Origin: a virus
Taxonomy: Duplodnaviria > Heunggongvirae > Uroviricota > Caudoviricetes
DNA: 6,654 bases
Virus record (IMG/VR): IMGVR_UViG_2585427741_000004
Span: 1 to 6,654 of that record
Strand: one strand, 5' to 3'
Under the pieces are notes generated by a model that ran no database searches, was not told the origin of the DNA, and was given only the letters and a program-made list of their open reading frames with translations. The translations under genes were made by a program, and so were the position numbers. Positions 1-6,654 of the stretch are shown piece after piece. Each line of letters begins with the position of its first letter. Within the stretch, counting starts at the first letter, position 1.

Positions 1-603
1 GCTTATTACAACATAAGGCAGGAGTTTAATTACTCAACTGAAATTACTGATTTCATGAAAGCGGTATATTTCCTGTATCTCAATCGTCACGGTTACCGTG
101 GTTTATGTCGCTATAACAAGAGCGGGCATTTCAACATTCCCTACGGTAATTATAAAAATCCGTATTTCCCTGAAAAAGAAATTCGCGCATTTGCAGAAAA
201 GGCCCAGCGAGCAACGTTTATCTGCGCCAGCTTTGATGAAACGCTGGCGATGTTGAAGGCGGGGGATGTGGTGTATTGCGATCCGCCGTATGACGGCACG
301 TTTTCCGGTTATCACACTGACGGCTTCACTGAAGATGACCAGTATCACCTGGCATCCGTTCTTGAATATCGATCATCAGAAGGTCATCCGGTCATTGTTT
401 CTAACAGTGACACATCCCTGATCCGTTCGCTGTATCGCAATTTCACTCACCACTACATCAAGGCAAAACGCAGCATCGGCGTGTCAGCTGGCGAGAGTAA
501 ATCTGCAACAGAAATCATTGCTGTTTCCGGGTCGCGCTGCTGGATGGGATTTGATCCTTCGCGTGGCGTGGATAGTTCTGCTGTGTACGAGGTGCGTGTA
601 TGA
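1..603 (+). CDS. dam: DNA adenine methyltransferase (Dam family, GATC N6-adenine MTase), 5'-truncated by the window edge
   Basis: Frame 1 is open from base 1 (no stop before the first Met at 55), so the gene starts upstream of the window. The translation closely parallels E. coli Dam as I recall it: [16 protein letters not shown]...FNIPYG.YK.PYFPEKE...FAEKAQ, then the catalytic motif IV DPPY (nt 277-288), then the HTDGFT and VIVSNSDT blocks. Stop TGA at 601-603. Confidence 0.88.
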
Positions 604-3014
604 GTCATGACGATATGAGCAACTCTAGCGGCTTTAACGAGGCTGCCGCAGCATTTTCATGGAACGGCCCGAAAAAGGCCATTAACCCTTATCTGGATCC
701 GGCGGAAGTTGCGCCGGAGTCTGCACTTTCAAACCTGATCACTCTGTACGCTGCCGATAACGAGCAGGAACAACTGCGCCGCGAGGCACTGAGTGAGCAG
801 GTCTGGGAGCGTTATTTCTTTAATGAATCCCGTGATCCTGTCCAGCGCGAAATGGAGCAGGATAAGCTCATTAGCCGGGCAAAGCTGGCGCATGAGCAGC
901 AGCGTTTTAACCCGGACATGGTCATTCTGGCAGATGTCAGCGCCCAGCCTTCTCATATCAGCAAGCCGCTGATGCAACGTATCGAATACTTCAGCAGCCT
1001 GGGCAGGCCAAAGGCTTATTCCCGCTATTTGCGTGAGACGATTAAGCCATGTCTGGAGCGACTGGATTGTGTACGTGACAGTCAGCTATCTGTTTCTTTC
1101 CGTTTTATGGCAAGCCATCAAGGGCTGGAGGGGCTGCTGATCCTGCCTGAAATGAGCCAGGATCAGGTGAAACGCCTGTCCACCCTGGTAGCAGCGCATA
1201 TGAGCATGTGTCTTGAGGCCGCTTGTGGTGATTTGTACGCCACCGATGACGTTAAGCCAGAAGAAATCCGCAAGACATGGGAAAAGGTGGCTGCGGAAAC
1301 CCTGCGTCTGGATGTTATCCCGCCTGCGTTTGAGAAACTTCGTCGGAAAAGAAACCGCCGCAAACCTGTGCCCTATGAACTCATACCGGGTTCGCTGGCA
1401 CGTATGCTTTGCGCCGACTGGTGGTATCGAAAATTGTGGAAGATGCGTTGCGAATGGCGGGAAGAGCAGTTGCGTGCTGTCTGTCTGGTCAGCAAAAAAG
1501 CATCTCCCTATGTCAGCTATGAAGCAGTGACGCATAAACGTGAGCAGCGCCGCAAGTCGCTGGAGTTTTTCCGTTCTCATGAACTGGTGAACGAAGACGG
1601 AGACACGCTGGATATGGAAGATGTGGTAAACGCCAGCAGCAGCAACCCGGCACATCGCCGCAATGAGATGATGGCCTGCGTTAAAGGTCTGGAGCTTATC
1701 GCGGAAATGCGCGGTGACTGCGCCGTTTTCTACACCATCACCTGTCCGTCACGTTTCCATTCCACGCTCAATAACGGCAGACCAAACCCGACCTGGACAA
1801 ATGCGACGGTAAGACAAAGCAGTGATTATCTGGTCGGCATGTTTGCTGCATTTCGTAAGGCGATGCACAAAGCCGGATTGCGGTGGTATGGCGTGCGGGT
1901 GGCTGAGCCGCATCATGACGGTACTGTGCACTGGCATCTCATGTGCTTCATGCGTAAAAAAGACCGCCGCGCCATCACTGCATTACTGCGTAAGTTTGCC
2001 ATCCGTGAAGACCGCGAGGAACTGGGCAATAACACGGGGCCACGCTTTAAGTCTGAGCTGATTAACCCGCGCAAAGGAACGCCGACAAGCTACATCGCGA
2101 AATACATCAGTAAGAACATTGACGGGCGTGGTCTGGCTGGCGAGATCAGCAAGGAAACGGGTAAATCTCTGCGTGATAACGCTGAATACGTTAATGCCTG
2201 GGCGTCTCTGCATCGTGTTCAGCAATTCCGCTTCTTTGGCATTCCGGGGCGTCAGGCTTACCGTGAACTGCGATTGCTGGCTGGTCAGGCGGCAAGGCAA
2301 CAGGGTGACAAAAAAGCAGGTGCACCGGTACTGGATAACCCGCGCCTTGATGCCATTCTGGCTGCAGCTGATGCTGGTTGTTTTGCCACCTACATCATGA
2401 AGCAGGGCGGCGTACTGGTTCCCCGTAAATATCACCTCATCAGAACCGCTTATGAAATCAACGAAGAGCCGACCGCCTATGGCGATCACGGCATTCGTAT
2501 TTATGGCATCTGGTCACCCATTGCAGAGGGTAAGATCTGCACTCATGCAGTGAAGTGGAAAATGGTTCGTAAGGCCGTTGACGTTCAGGAGGCGGCAGCC
2601 GACCAGGGCGCTTGCGCCCCTTGGACTCGTGGCAATAACTGTCCCCTTGCTGAAAATTTGAACCAACAGGAGAAAGATAAATCAGCTGATGGGGACACCA
2701 GAACGGATATTACCCGCATGGATGACAGGGAGTTGCACGATTACCTGCACAGTATGAACAAAAAAGAGCGCCGGGAACTGGCTGCAAGGTTACGTCTGGT
2801 GAAACCGAAACGGCGTAGAGACTACAAACAGCGAATTACAGACCATCAACGACAGCAGCTCGTCTATGAACTGAAGTCCAGAGGATTTGATGGCAGCGAG
2901 AAAGAGGTCGATTTACTCCTTCGCGGCGGCAGTATTCCATCAGGAGCAGGCTTGCGTATCTTCTATCGGAACCAGCGTCTGAAGGAAGATGATAAGTGGC
3001 GGAACCTGTATTAA
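600..3014 (+). CDS. A: Phage replication initiation endonuclease, P2 gpA-like (HUH rolling-circle initiator), 804 aa
   Basis: 2415-nt ORF. The ATG at 600 overlaps the dam stop (ATGA at 600-603) and has a GAGG Shine-Dalgarno at 589-592 with a 7-nt spacer. The translation carries an HUH-type metal-binding motif, VHWHLMCFM (HWH at nt 1929-1937, residues 444-446), and a paired-tyrosine motif, [12 protein letters not shown] (Tyr at nt 2091-2093 and 2103-2105, residues 498 and 502, Y-x-x-x-Y). These are the hallmarks of phiX174 gpA / P2 gpA superfamily nicking initiators. Size and position match P2/186 gene A. The start could alternatively be the Met at 615. Confidence 0.85.
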
Positions 3015-3083
3015 TTACGCGGGTTAACAATTCGTGCTCTTAATAATACCAGGAATATCAGGCCGATGAACGTAAAAAAACGT

Positions 3084-3110
3084 TTTACATCAGTAAGATT
3101 ATTATATACT
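3084..3110 (+). promoter_or_regulatory. Putative sigma70 promoter for the orf62-dinI cassette (-35 TTTACA at 3084-3089, -10 TATACT at 3105-3110)
   Basis: The -35-like hexamer TTTACA and -10-like hexamer TATACT lie in the AT-rich gap about 60 nt upstream of the orf62 start. The spacer is 15 nt, shorter than the optimal 17. The LexA box overlaps the -10 and the presumed start site. Exact hexamer assignment is uncertain. Confidence 0.35.
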
Positions 3111-3126
3111 GTAAATATAAACAGTG
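3107..3126 (+). promoter_or_regulatory. LexA operator (SOS box)
   Basis: TACTGTAAATATAAACAGTG has perfect CTGT (3109-3112) and ACAG (3121-3124) arms separated by an 8-nt AT-only spacer. It matches the E. coli LexA consensus TACTGTATATATATACAGTA at 17 of 20 positions, and it overlaps the putative -10. Confidence 0.75.
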
Positions 3127-3166
3127 GTTATGTATACAGTATTGCTTTGGTGTCATAGGAGGAAAG

Positions 3167-3355
3167 ATGCAGGACTATTTTTTGGAGTCTTTGAAGCTCC
3201 AGCGCATTGATTTTTTTCTTAAGCTTGTAGCGGCTAGTGAGTGTAGTGATGAAGAGAAGGGGCTGGCTCTGCAGTGGGTTTCTGAATTAACTGATGAACT
3301 CATGGCAAAAATCAGAACCCATGAATACAACCGCTCAATGGATGTCATCAGTTGA
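3167..3355 (+). CDS. Hypothetical small protein (62 aa), first gene of the SOS-controlled cassette
   Basis: ATG at 3167 is preceded by a strong Shine-Dalgarno AGGAGG at 3157-3162 (4-nt spacer). It sits immediately downstream of the LexA box and promoter and is followed 11 nt later by the DinI-like gene. The translation is acidic (SDEEKG, SELTDELMAK) and I recognise no family motif. Confidence 0.55.
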   Translation: MQDYFLESLKLQRIDFFLKLVAASECSDEEKGLALQWVSELTDELMAKIRTHEYNRSMDVIS

Positions 3356-3366
3356 GGTGACTTTTT

Positions 3367-3600
3367 ATGCGCATTGAAATAATGATCGATAAAGAGCAGA
3401 AGATTAGCCAGTCTACCCTGGACGCCCTTGAATACGAGCTTTACCGCAATCTGCGCCCCCTATATCCAAAAACGGTAATTCGCATCCGCAAAGGTAGCTC
3501 TAACGGTGTGGAACTGACCGGACTGCAACTGGACGAAGAAAGGAAGCAAGTGATGAAAATTATGCAGAAAGTGTGGGAAGACGACAGCTGGCTGCATTAA
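3367..3600 (+). CDS. dinI: DinI-family protein (DNA-damage-inducible protein I-like), 77 aa
   Basis: The translation MRIEIMIDKEQ...LDALEYELYRNL...YP...VIRIRKGS...ELTGLQLDEERKQVMKIMQKVWEDDSWLH aligns along its whole length with E. coli DinI as I recall it (MRIEVTIAKT...IDALAGELSRRI...FP...VSVRY...TKEDKQRISEILQETWESADDWFVSE). A GAGGTG Shine-Dalgarno lies about 8 nt upstream. A LexA box upstream is what a DinI-family gene is expected to have. Confidence 0.82.
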   Translation: MRIEIMIDKEQKISQSTLDALEYELYRNLRPLYPKTVIRIRKGSSNGVELTGLQLDEERKQVMKIMQKVWEDDSWLH

Positions 3601-3734
3601 GAAACGTTGCTGGCGTCTGAACTTGCTTCTGGCGTCAGCAAGGTTGAACAACGAGCTGTGCGAGGCGTTAGCTCTGTGGTGCATGTCTATACCGCATGAG
3701 ATCGCATGATCGTTTGAGGATCGTTTTTGCTCAG

Positions 3735-3758
3735 GCCCGCCAGAACTGGCGGGCTTTT
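3735..3758 (+). terminator. Rho-independent terminator closing the orf62-dinI cassette
   Basis: A perfect 9-bp GC-rich stem, GCCCGCCAG (3735-3743) and CTGGCGGGC (3746-3754), with a 2-nt AA loop, followed directly by TTTT (3755-3758). Confidence 0.75.
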
Positions 3759-3803
3759 GCGTAGATCATGCAGGTGCATGAAAACCACTACATAAAGCGG
3801 GCA

Positions 3804-3822
3804 GGCGTGGCGGGGATACGAG
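3804..3822. other. Candidate cos (cohesive end) site of a P2/186-like phage
   Basis: GGCGTGGCGGGGATACGAG is a 19-nt GC-rich motif in the non-coding gap between convergent terminators, exactly where P2-family phages place cos (between the right-end accessory genes and Q). From memory the P2 cohesive end is GGCGAGGCGGGGAAAGCAC and the 186 end begins GGCGTGGCGGGGA. The first 13 nt here match that pattern. The comparison relies on recalled sequences and was not computed. Confidence 0.5.
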
Positions 3823-3910
3823 CGCGCGCAACGGGGTAAAATGGCCAAAATCCGGCACAGCCTCTGGCCCGCTGGCGGCCTCATTTAGTGGAGGGGGGGA
3901 GATGTCAGGG

Positions 3911-3947
3911 CAAAAAGAAACGCCCCGCAGAATGCTGCTGAGGCGTT
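3911..3947 (-). terminator. Putative rho-independent terminator downstream of the portal gene (- strand)
   Basis: On the - strand, a hairpin with AACGCC / GGCGTT outer arms (+ coordinates 3919-3947, with an inner GCAG/CTGC stem) is followed by a T-rich run TCTTTTT (the + strand A-run at 3911-3918). It lies about 36 nt past the Q stop codon. The stem is imperfect. Confidence 0.45.
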
Positions 3948-3982
3948 GTGAGAGTTGGTCGGTTATTGATGTTATGAGTATG

Positions 3983-5023
3983 TCAGCTTCGTTTGCCCTT
4001 AAGTCCTAAGTCATAGGCTTCAAAACGGATAACCTCTTCATCCAGCCAGTCATTCAGCTCCTGCAGTCGCTTTTGCAGGGGCATCAGTTCATTGCGGACG
4101 AAGACACGGCTCGCTTTTTCCACATCCCCAAAGCCGCCAGTGTTGTTGGGAATGATGCCCATCATTTGCGGCGGTACGCGGTGAGCCGCCATCATGTCAT
4201 CGCGGCTGACGTTCTTGATGTTCAGAAATTCATCCTTCGCCGCGACTTCCGACAACGGGATAATCTGAATGCCATCTTTTTTGCCGTTAGGCGAGTACAT
4301 AAACAGGTTGCGGAAGTTGCCCGGTCCTTTAGCACTTTTCATTGCCTTGCGGATGTTGTTCACATCCTCCTGGTTCTGTGCGGCGTCGGTCATGTACATG
4401 ATGAAGCCTGCGTGGCTGCCGTTAATGTAATACTTGCGGCGGAACAGCGTGGCGGATTCGTTGAGCAGAGCTGACGGAATGGCAGAAAGGTAACCCGGCA
4501 GACCATAAATCTCCTGGTTGATATCCGGCTCCATCAGGTGGAAGACGTTACCTTTTGTGAACTGATACGGCTGTGTCGTCAGGCTGTATTGCACAAACCA
4601 GTATGTTTCAAGGTCAAGCCCGCGTCGGGTGTATTTTGCCAGTGCAGGCTCCAGCGAAATAACTTCACCAAAGCGGTTCGTGCGTTTCTCCAGGTAGGCG
4701 TTACCAAAAACCAGATAGTCCTGCACAAAACGGGTAAATGCCTGCTGGCTGAGAAGGCGATGTGGAATATAGGTACTGCTGATAATGTCACGCTTAACAC
4801 TGATCGGGGAGCTGTGGTGCACGGCGGCGCGGAAGGTGCGCGCCAGTCCGTCAAAGCTGACGGGCGGCTCATACCAGCGATCCATCTGTACGCATTCCAC
4901 ATAGTCCAGCAGTTCGCGGCGGTCCAGTACAGGAATGGGATCACCAAAGCTGAAAGCCTCCGCAACGGGTTTTTTAGTTTCTTCTGCAGTTACGGTTTCG
5001 CCTGGCGCGATATGTTCTTTCAT
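3983..5023 (-). CDS. Q: Phage portal protein (P2 gpQ-like), about 346 aa
   Basis: Large - strand ORF whose size and position (immediately downstream of the large terminase gene, next to cos) match the portal gene Q of P2-family phages. The likely start is the ATG at 5023-5021 (MKEHIAPGE...). The ORF track begins one codon upstream at a TTG. The start overlaps the terminase stop (ATGA). Confidence 0.78.
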   Translation of the reverse strand: MKEHIAPGETVTAEETKKPVAEAFSFGDPIPVLDRRELLDYVECVQMDRWYEPPVSFDGLARTFRAAVHHSSPISVKRDIISSTYIPHRLLSQQAFTRFVQDYLVFGNAYLEKRTNRFGEVISLEPALAKYTRRGLDLETYWFVQYSLTTQPYQFTKGNVFHLMEPDINQEIYGLPGYLSAIPSALLNESATLFRRKYYINGSHAGFIMYMTDAAQNQEDVNNIRKAMKSAKGPGNFRNLFMYSPNGKKDGIQIIPLSEVAAKDEFLNIKNVSRDDMMAAHRVPPQMMGIIPNNTGGFGDVEKASRVFVRNELMPLQKRLQELNDWLDEEVIRFEAYDLGLKGKRS

Positions 5024-6654
5024 CAAAAAATCTCCACAATATTGCTGGTATTGGCGGACTCGCCCTGCAGCGGTTCGTTAAACAGTGCGTGCATTGTTGC
5101 CCAGGCCAGATCGGCATGGCTGGCTTCTTCGCTGCGGCTGGCTTCATAGGTCGGGCGGTTGCCACTGGCAGTGGTAGCGCGACGGATTGCCATAAATGAC
5201 TGCGCAATGTCGGTGTGCCCGGCGTCAAACTCCAGACGGCGGTGGCTGATAATGTCGTAGGCCTTGAGTACCAGGGCGTTTTTAACGTTGGGGTTGTAGA
5301 CAAACTCCCTGACGGCAGGAAAAAACGCTTTCACGTTCTCGTAAACCCCGTGACCGACGCCGGTCGAGTCGATGCCGATATAGGTCACGTTGTACTGTTC
5401 GGTCAGTTTTTTGATGGCGTCAGCCTGGGCGCGGAAGTCCATTCCGCGCCACTGGTGACGCTCAAGAATGCGGAACTTACCGCCCGGCACGGCTGGCGGC
5501 GCCACCACCACGCATCCGGCGCTGTCGCCGTTCTGCGTACCTTTCGCCGGGTCATAACCGATCCACACTTCGCGCCAGCCAAACGGGCGCAGGGCCAGTG
5601 CATGAAAGTCGGTCCAGACTTCCCAACTGTCCACCATGCACGCCTGCAGCTCGCTGAGTGGGAACACAGACGCGAGATCGTCCACGAACTCACACATCAG
5701 CAGGTTCTGGTATTCGTCCGGGCTGTACTCCATGCGCAACTGGTCGAGGTCGAACAGGTTACAGCCGCCGCGCACCGCATCTTCCACAGTGACTATCTGG
5801 CGGTACTGCCCGTCTGCGCACAGCAGGCCGGGGGCCAGATTGCTGTGGGACCGGTCGATGTCCACCTTATCGGCTTTGTTGCGCCCTCGGTTGAACAGCG
5901 CACCGGACCAGAACGGATAAGCACTGTGTGTCAGGCTGGATGGCGTGGAAAAATAGGTTTGTCGCCATTTTTTGTGAATAGCCATACCGGAAGCCACTTT
6001 GCGCAGCTCCTGGAATTTCGGTATCCAGAAATATTCATCCAGATACAGGTTGCCGTGGTAACTCTGGGCCGTGCGGGCATTGGTGCCGAGGAAGTACAGC
6101 GTGGCCCCGTTAGGAAGCACCATCGGATCGCCTTTCAGCTCCACCTCCACTTCTTTGGCGAAGTCGATGATGTACTGCTTAAAGACGTGGGCCTGAGCCT
6201 TGCTGGCGGAAAGGAAAATCTGGTTACGCCCGGTTAGCAGGGCGTCAATCAGGGCTTCACGGGCAAAATAGAAGGTCGCACCGATCTGGCGTGACTTCAG
6301 CAGGTTGCGGATGCGGTTGGTTTTTCCGGCTTCCCACCAGTGGCGCTGGTAGTTGAACATGGAGGAATGGAAGATTTCTTCCAGCTTCTCAATCTGTTCA
6401 TCGGTGAAAACGTTCTTTTCCGGCTGACGACGCGGGCCTTTGTTGCGGTTGGCGACGTTAGGGTTTAAGTCGGCTTCGTTGCCGCCATTGTTAAACTTGC
6501 CGATCCGCGCATGGCGCTCCGACTGGCGCGCCAGCAGGTCAATCTCTTTGAAATCTTTCCCTTCTTTGTGCTCCTTCATAATGAGCTGGCAGTAGCGTGC
6601 GGCGGTGGTGAGCTGCATCTGATCCAGCGGCCCATAGTCACCCCACTTGTCGCG
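5023..6654 (-). CDS. P: Terminase large (ATPase) subunit, P2 gpP-like, N-terminus beyond the window
   Basis: The - strand frame is open from the window edge (6654) to a TGA stop at 5025-5023. The 12 codons upstream of the first in-window Met (6618) contain no stop, so the true start lies outside the window. Gene order P then Q on the same strand, with coupled stop/start, matches the P2 late operon. The assignment rests on size, synteny and overall resemblance to P2-family terminases; I did not verify a Walker motif. Confidence 0.75.
   Translation of the reverse strand, partial: RDKWGDYGPLDQMQLTTAARYCQLIMKEHKEGKDFKEIDLLARQSERHARIGKFNNGGNEADLNPNVANRNKGPRRQPEKNVFTDEQIEKLEEIFHSSMFNYQRHWWEAGKTNRIRNLLKSRQIGATFYFAREALIDALLTGRNQIFLSASKAQAHVFKQYIIDFAKEVEVELKGDPMVLPNGATLYFLGTNARTAQSYHGNLYLDEYFWIPKFQELRKVASGMAIHKKWRQTYFSTPSSLTHSAYPFWSGALFNRGRNKADKVDIDRSHSNLAPGLLCADGQYRQIVTVEDAVRGGCNLFDLDQLRMEYSPDEYQNLLMCEFVDDLASVFPLSELQACMVDSWEVWTDFHALALRPFGWREVWIGYDPAKGTQNGDSAGCVVVAPPAVPGGKFRILERHQWRGMDFRAQADAIKKLTEQYNVTYIGIDSTGVGHGVYENVKAFFPAVREFVYNPNVKNALVLKAYDIISHRRLEFDAGHTDIAQSFMAIRRATTASGNRPTYEASRSEEASHADLAWATMHALFNEPLQGESANTSNIVEIF

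Follow-up and report, generated by a model that had tools for sequence, protein, structure and literature searches.

The stretch at positions 3015 to 3600 of the window (the whole 6,654 nt of DNA analysed here) is very probably the SOS-induction operon, tumA-tumB, of a Fels-2/186-type P2-like (Peduoviridae) prophage, as judged from its homologies. Comparison with related phages further assigns the operon (3074–3600) to the regulatory backbone, as a conserved phage part and not an inserted accessory cassette. The support at the sequence level consists of homology, synteny, operator conservation and the lack of a mosaic junction in close relatives. LexA-controlled prophage induction operons are already known, and the finding is an ordinary one. 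The gene order is dam-A-ORF62-ORF77-cos-Q-P, with the operon placed between replication gene A (600–3014) and cos (3804–3822). The records of related phages annotate the dam-type gene as a DNA adenine methylase, and an Rfam scan of the whole window returned zero matches at E values up to 0.1. The genes are as follows.

1–603, plus strand: dam-type gene for a DNA adenine methylase, 3′ part only, running off the window start (Pfam MethyltransfD12, 3.9e-43)
600–3014, plus strand: replication gene A, P2 gpA-type nicking endonuclease (Pfam Phage_GPA, 3.5e-128)
3167–3355, plus strand: ORF62, tumA-type, predicted to be the antirepressor half of Tum; 62 aa, modelled as a two-helix hairpin
3367–3600, plus strand: ORF77, tumB, DinI-family protein (Pfam DinI, 1.9e-22)
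3983–5026, minus strand: portal gene Q (Pfam Phage_portal, 3.7e-19)
5023–6654, minus strand: terminase large subunit gene P, 5′ end off the window (Pfam Terminase_6N, 1.2e-64; Terminase_6C, 1.4e-49)

ORF62 is 98% identical to Fels-2 STM2728, and databases annotate it merely as hypothetical. BLASTP found no match between ORF62 and either 186 Tum or PsP3 TumA, ORF62 matches no Pfam family, and a sequence search for solved-structure relatives found none; a single-sequence AF2 model has a pLDDT of 91.6, and its Foldseek comparison with the PDB returned only non-specific helical hairpins, none with E ≤ 0.001. Comparison with residues 6–41 of 186 Tum yields a Smith-Waterman z of 8.8 (0 of 2000 shuffles), residues 7–44 of 186 Tum match ORF62's own family, phrog_698, at 2.7e-5, and ORF62 in turn matches phrog_8554 and phrog_1993. 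The hhalign comparison of ORF62 with Tum has an E value of 0.0015, a probability of 17% and a collinear alignment over 4–43. Each measure is weak when taken singly; together, they are reciprocal and collinear, and they argue for ORF62 being a homologue of the N-terminal (antirepressor) half of Tum. The similarity to PsP3 TumA is distant (Smith-Waterman z of only 2.6, with differing PHROGs), which fits immunity-specific divergence. By analogy, an antirepressor activity of ORF62, with CI binding and operator block, is predicted; such activity is known for 186 Tum, and for PSP3 TumA it is given as a personal communication cited in PMC3121763. A protein listed as “hypothetical” in public records thereby gains an annotation as a TumA-type antirepressor half.

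ORF77 matches DinI (PF06183) with 79.8 bits, at a gathering cutoff of 24.2 and over positions 1–63 of the 63-position profile, and it matches the DinI structure 1GHH in the PDB with E = 6.3e-6. It is 99% identical to its Fels-2 counterpart (STM2726.1), 78% identical to PsP3 TumB and 41% identical to residues 71–145 of 186 Tum, and it matches positions 71–148 of phrog_189. From their alignments, ORF62 and ORF77 are a split variant of Tum, with its N- and C-terminal halves carried by two adjacent ORFs. The same split, by a stop codon, is described for tum in Fels-2 and PSP3, where the upstream half is the antirepressor and the downstream half a DinI homologue (PMC3121763). Here, the ORF62 stop lies at 3353–3355, and ORF77 uses a different frame, which has a TGA (3358–3360) ahead of its ATG. 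A single Tum of the 186 kind, made by read-through or frameshifting, was considered and rejected, given these stops in both frames. A generic terminator scan of 2950–4050 found only two weak terminator-like sites, one of which is a hairpin at the ORF62/ORF77 junction (3344–3361) that is not significant on folding (z = −0.85).

Upstream of ORF62, the 152 nt that follow gene A contain a spacer, a putative promoter and two predicted LexA boxes, listed below with their conservation in a phylogenetic footprint of 25 distinct promoter sequences from about 15 enterobacterial genera.

3015–3073, unstranded: little-conserved spacer behind the stop codon of A, a family-level junction/insertion zone (~51% column conservation)
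3074–3080, plus strand: A-tract, −45 to −39 relative to the −35 hexamer, conserved across the 25 sequences
3084–3089, plus strand: −35 hexamer TTTACA of the putative tum promoter (p95 analogue), 99% conserved in 25 sequences from ~15 genera
3105–3112, plus strand: −10 region, either TATACT at 3105–3110 (15-nt spacer) or TACTGT at 3107–3112 (17-nt spacer)
3107–3126, unstranded: predicted LexA box 1, TACTGTAAATATAAACAGTG, overlapping the −10; exact CTGT-N8-ACAG, 17/20 to consensus
3122–3141, unstranded: predicted LexA box 2, CAGTGGTTATGTATACAGTA, overlapping box 1; 15/20 to consensus
3157–3162, plus strand: Shine-Dalgarno sequence AGGAGG of ORF62, 84% conserved

In the footprint, the promoter and operator elements (the −35, the CTGT and both ACAG motifs) are 91–100% conserved, while neighbouring positions are conserved at ~50%. 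The A-tract may be UP-element-like, going by the UP proximal-subsite consensus. The arrangement TTTACA-17 nt-TACTGT matches the geometry of 186 p95, annotated as TTCACA-18 nt-TACTGT. A generic sigma-70 promoter scan of 2950–4050 returned zero promoters, and of the two candidate −10 elements one is weak (TACTGT, 3/6) and the other short-spaced (TATACT, 15 nt). The putative tum promoter, with its predicted SOS-dependent activity, is assigned instead from the 186 p95 precedent and from conservation. A weak hairpin at 3065–3094 was considered as a terminator shielding the promoter from transcription of A, and was rejected on the grounds that its left arm is not conserved.

LexA binding is predicted at both boxes. 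Box 1 is the window's only exact match to TACTGT-N8-ACAGT (0 of 200 shuffles); its CTGT is 100% and its ACAG 94% conserved in the 25-sequence footprint, and it is present with at most one core mismatch in 31 of 33 loci. Box 2 is present in ~22 of the 33 loci with its ACAG 91% conserved in the footprint. Its left half is degenerate, with GTGG instead of CTGT, so LexA occupancy there would follow from conservation and from the analogy to colicin operators, whose aligned second boxes have the same left half. The two 16-mers (3109–3124 and 3124–3139) share one base, as in colicin-type double operators. In particular, the colicin N and E1-type operators, which sit 38–43 nt upstream of their genes, share the architecture CTGT-N8-ACAGTGG-N8-ACAG and align nearly base for base with the tum double box (86% identity over 43–46 nt), whereas the gene downstream encodes a bacteriocin in the one case and an antirepressor in the other. 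Double SOS boxes in colicin promoters, among them those of colicins N, E1 and K, bind two LexA dimers and are very tightly repressed (PMC2994835). By comparison, 186 and PsP3 have a single LexA box and the Pantoea/Erwinia branch likewise lacks the double operator, whereas the Fels-2-like phages have it; a description of a double SOS operator in Fels-2-like tum promoters was not found in the searchable literature. The likeness to colicin operators fits either shared ancestry or convergence on the LexA consensus. It is a tentative suggestion, with the odds somewhat against it, that the near-identity to the colicin N/E1 operators reflects an exchange of modules between Col plasmids and P2-like phages; if true, the double operator would give these prophages a colicin-like induction that is very tight, late and heterogeneous.

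The proposed mechanism draws on homologues and on the literature. In the lysogen, LexA would occupy both boxes and keep the tum operon silent. Upon DNA damage, active RecA would cause LexA self-cleavage and the operon would be transcribed; ORF62 would then bind the 186-type CI immunity repressor and keep it from binding its operators, leading to lytic growth. The co-expressed ORF77 would probably modulate RecA filaments and, with them, how strong or how long the SOS signal is. The CI target of this phage falls outside the window, and a 186-type CI/CII/Fil region lies upstream in the close E. coli relative UTAK-18. In coliphage 186, LexA controls Tum, which acts as an antirepressor of CI; both LexA repression and SOS-dependent transcription were shown there (PMC7708051), and by genetics for the E. 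coli HS prophage (PMC12055606). The modulation of RecA filaments by TumB is probable by analogy; in Gifsy prophages, non-polar dinI deletions were without effect on induction (PMC3121763), which makes the role of TumB uncertain. Overall, the prophage is predicted to respond to DNA-damaging agents via LexA and TumA.

The closest described counterpart is the SOS operon of 186 (p95-tum-orf97), which occupies the same place, directly after A and before cos. After gene A, the 186 record lists p95 (SOS-dependent), a LexA site, tum, t95a, orf97 and t95b. As here, the LexA box of 186 covers a TACTGT −10 with the −35 located 17–18 nt upstream, and its Tum combines an antirepressor N-terminal part with a DinI-like C-terminal part, corresponding to ORF62 and ORF77. 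The two differ in that 186 Tum is one 146-aa polypeptide while here a stop divides it into two ORFs that use different frames, and in that 186 carries orf97 downstream, at a position that is empty here. The split tumA/tumB of PSP3 and Fels-2 has the same two-gene arrangement, with the PsP3 pair at the same locus. The Gifsy operons (dinI - gfoA/gftA - irsA) appear analogous in being LexA-repressed and in pairing a small antirepressor with a DinI homologue, and the Gifsy repressor is inactivated through binding, not cleavage (PMC3121763). However, the Gifsy phages are lambdoid and have the reversed order, with dinI first; the likeness is drawn from the description of their operons.

The base composition of the region is unusual, as the sequence-only reading had stated. 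The gap between A and ORF62 (3015–3166) has 33.6% GC, which is below every 152-nt window outside 3015–3600, where such windows average 53.8% GC (z = −4.6 for the gap); the whole of 3015–3600 has 42.0% GC (z = −4.8). The AT-rich run quoted earlier, AAAAAAACGTTTTACATCAGTAAGATTATTATATACTGTAAATATAAACAG, was located at 3074–3124. The two small genes had also been described as less GC-rich than the genes on either side; this holds against A, Q and P (52–57%), but the picture is not symmetric, as the dam fragment itself has only 48.5%. The GC contents are 42.9% for ORF62 and 47.0% for ORF77; in the codon-usage comparison, ORF77 has 47.6% against 49.0% expected under backbone codon usage. A deviant codon usage was not borne out: the combined GC3 of ORF62 and ORF77 (0.540) does not differ significantly from that of dam (0.500, p = 0.50) and A (0.566, p = 0.58). 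Instead, their significant GC deficit is at codon position 2 (0.288 versus 0.409, p = 0.005), and it arises from amino-acid composition. Taken separately, ORF77 has a GC3 z of −0.95, and only ORF62 falls modestly short in GC3 (z = −2.45), against a pool of dam, A, Q and P that takes in the GC3-rich late genes Q and P. The tum genes have GC3 values of 0.52–0.58, like A, compared with 0.23–0.31 for the cargo genes of relatives. Thus, the synonymous-site composition of the tum genes, which in hotspot cargo or a moron would be unlike the backbone, resembles it. The low GC of the gap results from its promoter and AT-rich LexA operators. Overall, the low GC is due to an AT-rich promoter and operators and to the amino-acid makeup of two small charged proteins, and not to foreign origin. 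The dip is seen in every lineage, whatever the backbone; for example, the 186 unit is also low in GC relative to A (0.415 for the gap and 0.451 for tum, with 0.518 for A).

The same earlier reading had taken the AT-rich stretch for a horizontally exchanged module, which does not stand as a recent insertion and stands in part as a deep, family-level recombination unit. It is highly improbable that 3015–3600 is a recently acquired accessory cassette (a moron or cargo) with edges marked by the compositional shift. In its favour, GC does drop sharply at 3015, ORF62 has a slightly low GC3, the unit has its own promoter with hairpins behind it, P2 is without the module, and the stretch sits in the gpA-gpQ interval, which is described as a diversity hotspot of P2-like phages (PMC9122126). 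However, in Fels-2-like phages of Klebsiella, E. coli and Salmonella, 3015–3598 is 95–97% identical and contiguous with A, and in close relatives identity remains at 94–97% from A through ORF77, with no step at 3015 or within the cassette. Against Fels-2 itself, to which 3015–3598 is 96% identical in DNA, the identity step is inside A, near 2500. The stretch is found at a coverage of at least 80% in 1079 of 5426 complete E. coli genomes, and it occurs in ~15 genera, always directly behind A. Presence/absence or replacement of the stretch, as expected of cargo or a moron, was not found among close relatives, whose variable cargo is downstream of 3598; alignment to related prophages, which had been proposed for finding the exact mosaic breakpoints, places them downstream, at 3598/3599, ~3672–3680, ~3830 and ~4012–4070. 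The AT-rich positions, moreover, are conserved promoter and operator elements, and the GC3 of the two genes is that of neighbouring early genes.

At the deep family level, family-wide comparison supports, in a weaker sense, the operon being an exchangeable recombination unit in which tumB is optional; the tum module is absent from P2 itself. A further account, in which the promoter-tumA(-tumB) unit is a self-contained cassette recombined between P2-like backbones and owes its composition partly to that separate history, is on balance unlikely. Much of the family-level evidence agrees with such exchange. The module is joined to unrelated A genes at ~3074/3075. Two Enterobacter loci, L025 and L026, show DNA homology from exactly 3075 onwards; their A is 32–34% and their Q and P 64–66% identical, yet ORF62 is 81–85% and ORF77 70–83% identical; in L032-L037, A is 35–37% and ORF62 72–78% identical, and the cos block is directly behind ORF62. 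Three loci (L017, L023 and L027) lack tumB, their homology breaking off near 3343 and picking up again at 3599/3600. Inserts separate A from the promoter in L028 (~1 kb, with a DPPY methyltransferase-like ORF) and in L023 (~0.3 kb), both positioned between 3013/3015 and 3074/3102. The N-terminal half of 186 tum also has a low GC3 (0.34). Nevertheless, junctions that fall at the boundaries of operons are common phage mosaicism, for which replacement of gene A would be an equally good explanation, no donor of different composition is identifiable, and the GC dip present in every lineage is explained by operator and promoter sequence together with GC2. Exchange in deep time is compatible with the SOS-induction operon on function, and not on the cause of the GC dip. 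As for function, there is very little likelihood that the operon is mainly a host-directed, DinI-type SOS modulator (lysogenic conversion) with ORF62 as an unrelated small protein. ORF77 is a bona fide DinI family member, ORF62 has only its hypothetical database entry, and the 186 record describes truncated Tum products as modulating SOS induction; against this, ORF62 shares homology with the antirepressor half of Tum, and of the two genes it is the invariant one, many lineages keeping it and losing the DinI gene, and antirepressor activity in PSP3 is assigned to the upstream gene (PMC3121763). Further, in the P2-like prophage of E. coli HS, mitomycin induction requires tum and a cleavable LexA, and deleting tum abolishes induction (PMC12055606).

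The real cargo hotspots flank cos, just downstream of the operon. The elements between ORF77 and Q are listed here.

3603–3672, plus strand: hairpin (3603–3645) and conserved 31-mer (3642–3672), possibly an attenuator (fold −33 kcal/mol, z = −1.8)
3672–3680, unstranded: cargo site R, behind the tum operon and ahead of cos, unoccupied in this phage
3733–3758, plus strand: GC-rich hairpin and U-tract, probable tum-operon terminator (fold −27.7 kcal/mol, z = −3.5)
3804–3822, unstranded: cos, 19-nt cohesive-end sequence GGCGTGGCGGGGATACGAG; cleavage after 3803
3830–4012, unstranded: cargo site L, between cos and the Q 3′ end, empty here

The element at 3603–3672 also occurs behind orf97 in 186 and behind orf37 in PsP3, with 90% matches, and a hairpin homologous to 3733–3758 is found ~50 nt before cos in both phages. 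The cos position is set by window positions 3791–3803, identical to the 13 nt that end the linear genome of PsP3, and by a 22-nt match to P2 cosR. At site R, most loci lose homology at 3671–3672 and regain it at 3676–3681, with 0.1–3.5 kb of unrelated DNA between; at site L, homology stops at ~3829–3843 and resumes at ~4005–4080, and the contents in relatives are AIPR/Abi, Hypoth_Ymh, a retron-type RT or STM2723.1. For example, Fels-2 has STM2726 and STM2723.1 as cargo on either side of cos, both of which are absent here. The interval is the same as that of the P2 gpA-gpQ/cos-proximal defence hotspot (tin, old; Rousset et al. 2022), and it is there that relatives have their low-GC3 genes; in this P2-type hotspot, the variable cargo sits at two cos-flanking points, and the tum genes are not cargo. 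For genome scanning, this is a caution: an AT-rich dip with low-GC small genes can mimic acquired cargo, and here it marks what is read as a conserved core of SOS inducibility, whereas GC3 combined with a comparison to relatives cleanly separates the regulatory core (0.52–0.58) from cargo (0.23–0.31). Both cos-flanking sites are empty in ~20 of ~1280 matching E. coli genomes and in one Yersinia phage. The phage is thus an uncommon natural variant with both cargo sites empty, and might be of use as a clean chassis, or as the reference when hotspot boundaries are defined. Its tum-to-cos distance of 204 bp is near the shortest seen with tumB intact, and its cos-to-Q distance is 160 bp, within a range of 148–3346 bp across loci.

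The stretch at 3015-3600 corresponds to the tumA-tumB induction operon, known from earlier work as LexA-controlled. A sequence-only reading had taken it for a horizontally exchanged mosaic insertion, because of its AT-rich gap and low-GC small genes; as an accessory cassette inserted in this phage, that reading was wrong. The window, whose Pfam matches include a dam-type methylase, a P2 gpA-type replication protein, the portal (Q) and the large terminase (P), runs in the order dam, A, ORF62, ORF77, cos, Q(-), P(-), and Fels-2-like Peduoviridae from Klebsiella, E. coli and Salmonella match it at 93-94% identity. In particular, positions 3015-3598 keep 95-97% identity when compared with Fels-2 or with phages of Klebsiella and E. 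coli, and identity in close relatives is flat (94-97%) across A, the gap, ORF62 and ORF77. Compared with Fels-2, identity steps from 82% to 99% inside gene A near 2500 (about 2450-2550), not at 3015, which marks a recombination junction within the replication gene. Such recombination leaves the A 3′ end and the tum operon as a single segment common with Fels-2. Further, 1079 of 5426 complete E. coli genomes have the 3015-3598 stretch at a coverage of at least 80%, mostly with 95-99% identity.

The compositional contrast is in part real. The gap at 3015-3166 has a GC content of 33.6%, below every other 152-nt window (mean elsewhere 53.8%, z = -4.6), with a minimum of 20-24% in 50-nt windows around 3075-3150. 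ORF62 (42.9% GC) and ORF77 (47.0%) are indeed poorer in GC than A (53.0%), Q (52.4%) and P (57.1%), but the contrast on the left is weaker because the dam fragment has only 48.5% GC. Codon usage does not shift: the pooled GC3 of ORF62 and ORF77 is 0.540, similar to that of dam (0.500, p = 0.50) and A (0.566, p = 0.58). Their significant GC deficit is carried by codon position 2 (0.288 versus 0.409, p = 0.005), as a result of amino-acid composition; from its own amino acids and backbone codon usage, ORF77 is expected to have 49.0% GC, and 47.6% is observed. Only in ORF62 does GC3 fall modestly short (z = -2.45) of the pooled backbone, which takes in GC3-rich late genes. GC3 splits the genes into two classes, cargo genes at 0.23-0.31 versus tumA-like and DinI genes at an A-like 0.52-0.58, and the P2 genes tin and old have GC contents of 0.33-0.35. 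Overall, the GC dip travels with promoter-tumA(-tumB) in every lineage, 186 and PsP3 included, and is explained by function.

The AT-rich run quoted in support of the insertion reads as the A-tract, -35 element, spacer and LexA box 1 of the tum promoter, and its AT-richness would be functional. In the 186 record, gene A is followed directly by the SOS-dependent promoter p95, with a LexA site overlapping its -10 element, and then by tum, the terminator t95a, orf97 and t95b. In 186, p95 reads TTCACA-18 nt-TACTGT, and its LexA site TACTGTATGTTTATACAGTA begins at the -10 element; the window has TTTACA (3084-3089), a 17 nt spacer and TACTGT (3107-3112), and its LexA box TACTGTAAATATAAACAGTG (3107-3126) likewise begins at the TACTGT -10. 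An exact TACTGT-N8-ACAGT occurs once in the window (3107-3126) and in none of 200 shuffles. A wider comparison took in 33 loci, drawn from about 15 Enterobacterales genera and each encoding an ORF62 homologue. In all loci that include the upstream region, an A-type gene is followed by an AT-rich gap, usually about 150 bp long with a GC content of 0.28-0.41, the exceptions being L023, L028 and L035 (0.3-1.15 kb, GC 0.45-0.49); in 31 of the 33, a LexA box whose core has one mismatch or none lies 38-95 nt upstream of the ORF62 start codon. A phylogenetic footprint of the gap, built from 25 distinct sequences, gives conservation of 99% for the -35 element, 100% for CTGT, 94% for ACAG and 91% for a second, downstream ACAG (3136-3139), versus about 50% for the remaining gap.

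This second ACAG belongs to a box 2 that overlaps box 1, as CTGT-N8-ACAGTGG-N8-ACAG (window 3107-3141). A plasmid search with the 50-mer operator returned 43-46-nt matches of 86% identity on small Col plasmids, located 38-43 nt ahead of the colicin N and colicin E1-type genes, and these operators align nearly base for base with the window's double box. Double overlapping SOS boxes occur in about 22 of the 33 surveyed loci; in contrast, 186, PsP3 and the Tatumella, Pantoea and Erwinia loci have a single LexA box. For the Fels-2-like branch, such a colicin-type double operator is a mildly new point; as in colicins, it probably raises the induction threshold.

ORF77 (3367-3600, +) belongs to the DinI family (Pfam 1.9e-22; PDB 1GHH, E = 6.3e-6). 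Its identity is 99% to the Fels-2 DinI-like protein, 78% to PsP3 TumB and 41% to 186 Tum over residues 71-145; its match to the 151-position PHROG around full-length Tum spans positions 71-148. ORF62 (3167-3355, +) matched no Pfam family, and comparisons with Tum identify it as the counterpart of the Tum N-terminal half. Aligned by Smith-Waterman with Tum residues 1-70, it reaches z = 8.8, a level seen in 0 of 2000 shuffles and close to that of PsP3 TumA versus Tum (z = 8.1). Residues 7-44 of 186 Tum match ORF62's own family, phrog_698 (2.7e-5); ORF62 in turn matches phrog_8554 and phrog_1993, to which the 186 Tum N-terminus and PsP3 TumA belong; and a 21-homologue ORF62 profile aligns collinearly with Tum, 4-43 to 4-43 (E = 0.0015). 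The motif common to the two is C-x6-[LI]-A-[LI]-x-[LW]-[IV]-[AS]-E-[LI]. In the confident AlphaFold2 model of ORF62 (pLDDT 91.6), two helices form a hairpin, and the invariant Cys sits in its turn. RefSeq/PGAP and the phage records compared give ORF62 homologues no name but 'hypothetical protein', and the three PHROG families connecting ORF62 to Tum bear no function label; public databases leave the TumA-type antirepressor half effectively unannotated. An ORF62-ORF77 fusion by read-through or frameshift was ruled out from the sequence.

The sequences themselves show how operator and promoter are built and conserved, the homology of the two proteins, the synteny, and a 186-type CI/CII/Fil immunity region in a close E. 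coli relative. By homology, LexA would repress the tum promoter, RecA-mediated LexA self-cleavage after DNA damage would derepress it, and TumA would then bind CI and keep it off its operators. Indeed, 186 Tum binds CI and prevents operator binding (PMC7708051; PMC3121763), and in an E. coli HS P2-like prophage either tum deletion or a non-cleavable LexA abolishes mitomycin induction (PMC12055606). TumB, as a DinI-like protein, probably adjusts RecA filament activity, but deleting dinI in Gifsy prophages left induction unchanged (PMC3121763), which makes the role of TumB uncertain.

The horizontal-exchange reading is partly supported, in a deep-time sense only, by recombination junctions that distant lineages show at the unit's edges. 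Two Enterobacter loci (L025, L026) are only 32-34% identical to the window in A and 64-66% in Q and P, versus 81-85% in ORF62, and their DNA homology starts exactly at 3075, the promoter A-tract. Between the A stop and the tum promoter, L028 has an insert of roughly 1 kb and L023 one of roughly 0.3 kb. In L028, an Enterobacter bugandensis prophage, the insert (4850-5900; window 3013|3074) encodes a 231-aa ORF with a DPPY motif, by eye a putative DNA methyltransferase; its position would count as a third cargo site, one seldom used. Three loci (L017, L023, L027) are without tumB, their homology stopping near 3343 and restarting at 3599/3600, and the Pantoea/Erwinia loci (L032-L037) have ORF62 alone with the cos block directly after it; of the pair, tumB is optional and tumA invariant. 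P2 has no tum, with orf91, tin and old in place. The edge junctions, tumB loss and P2 without tum therefore make promoter-tumA(-tumB) an exchangeable regulatory module at the scale of the family; mosaicism of this kind is ordinary in phages.

Two hairpins lie between ORF77 and cos:
3603-3672: hairpin (3603-3645) followed by a conserved 31-mer, common to 186 and PsP3
3733-3758: GC-rich hairpin with U-tract, GCCAGAnCTGGCG, z = -3.5

The 31-mer reads GGTTGAACAACGAGC...GCGAGGCGTTAG and follows orf97 in 186 and orf37 in PsP3, where the preceding hairpins differ in stem sequence and keep the same fold pattern. The 3603-3672 hairpin lacks a U-tract, and many cargo insertions start right after this element, at about 3672. 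The 3733-3758 hairpin is probably the terminator of the tum operon. In 186 and PsP3 as well as in the window, a hairpin stands at this place, about 50 nt upstream of where cos is cleaved, but only the window's has a 9-10-bp GC stem and UUUU; it could double as terminator and part of cos recognition. Sequence matches fix the position of cos precisely: the linear PsP3 genome ends in 13 nt that are identical to window 3791-3803, and the cos 19-mer GGCGTGGCGGGGATACGAG follows at 3804-3822, its first part matching P2 cosR.

Alignment to relatives did find breakpoints, downstream of the tum genes and in two classes. Those between the tum operon and cos fall at 3598/3599 or about 3672-3680, where Fels-2 and a Klebsiella phage have a further gene at the place of 186 orf97 (Fels-2 STM2726 and orf97 have no sequence similarity). 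Those between cos and Q run from about 3830 to about 4012-4070, where relatives have AIPR/Abi, Hypoth_Ymh, a retron-type reverse transcriptase or STM2723.1. The tum-to-cos distance is 204 bp in the window (105 to 3507 bp across loci) and the cos-to-Q distance is 160 bp (148 to 3346 bp), so both cargo sites are empty; the 382 bp from the DinI gene to the portal gene contain solely terminator, cos and spacer. About 20 of the roughly 1280 complete E. coli genomes that match share this contiguous state, as do Pantoea stewartii (L029) and, among 90 matching phage records, a single Yersinia phage. The cos-proximal gpA-gpQ interval is a published hotspot of P2-like phages (PMC9122126), and a 2026 survey never met P2-like genomes with both main defence hotspots gene-free (PMC13586616). 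The emptiness of both cos-flanking cargo sites is mildly new. The gpA-gpQ interval of the window contains the tum genes only. At the Q 3′ end (3983-4012), homology to most relatives restarts 20-90 nt inside the gene, and the last 8-30 portal codons are therefore swapped together with the adjacent cargo.
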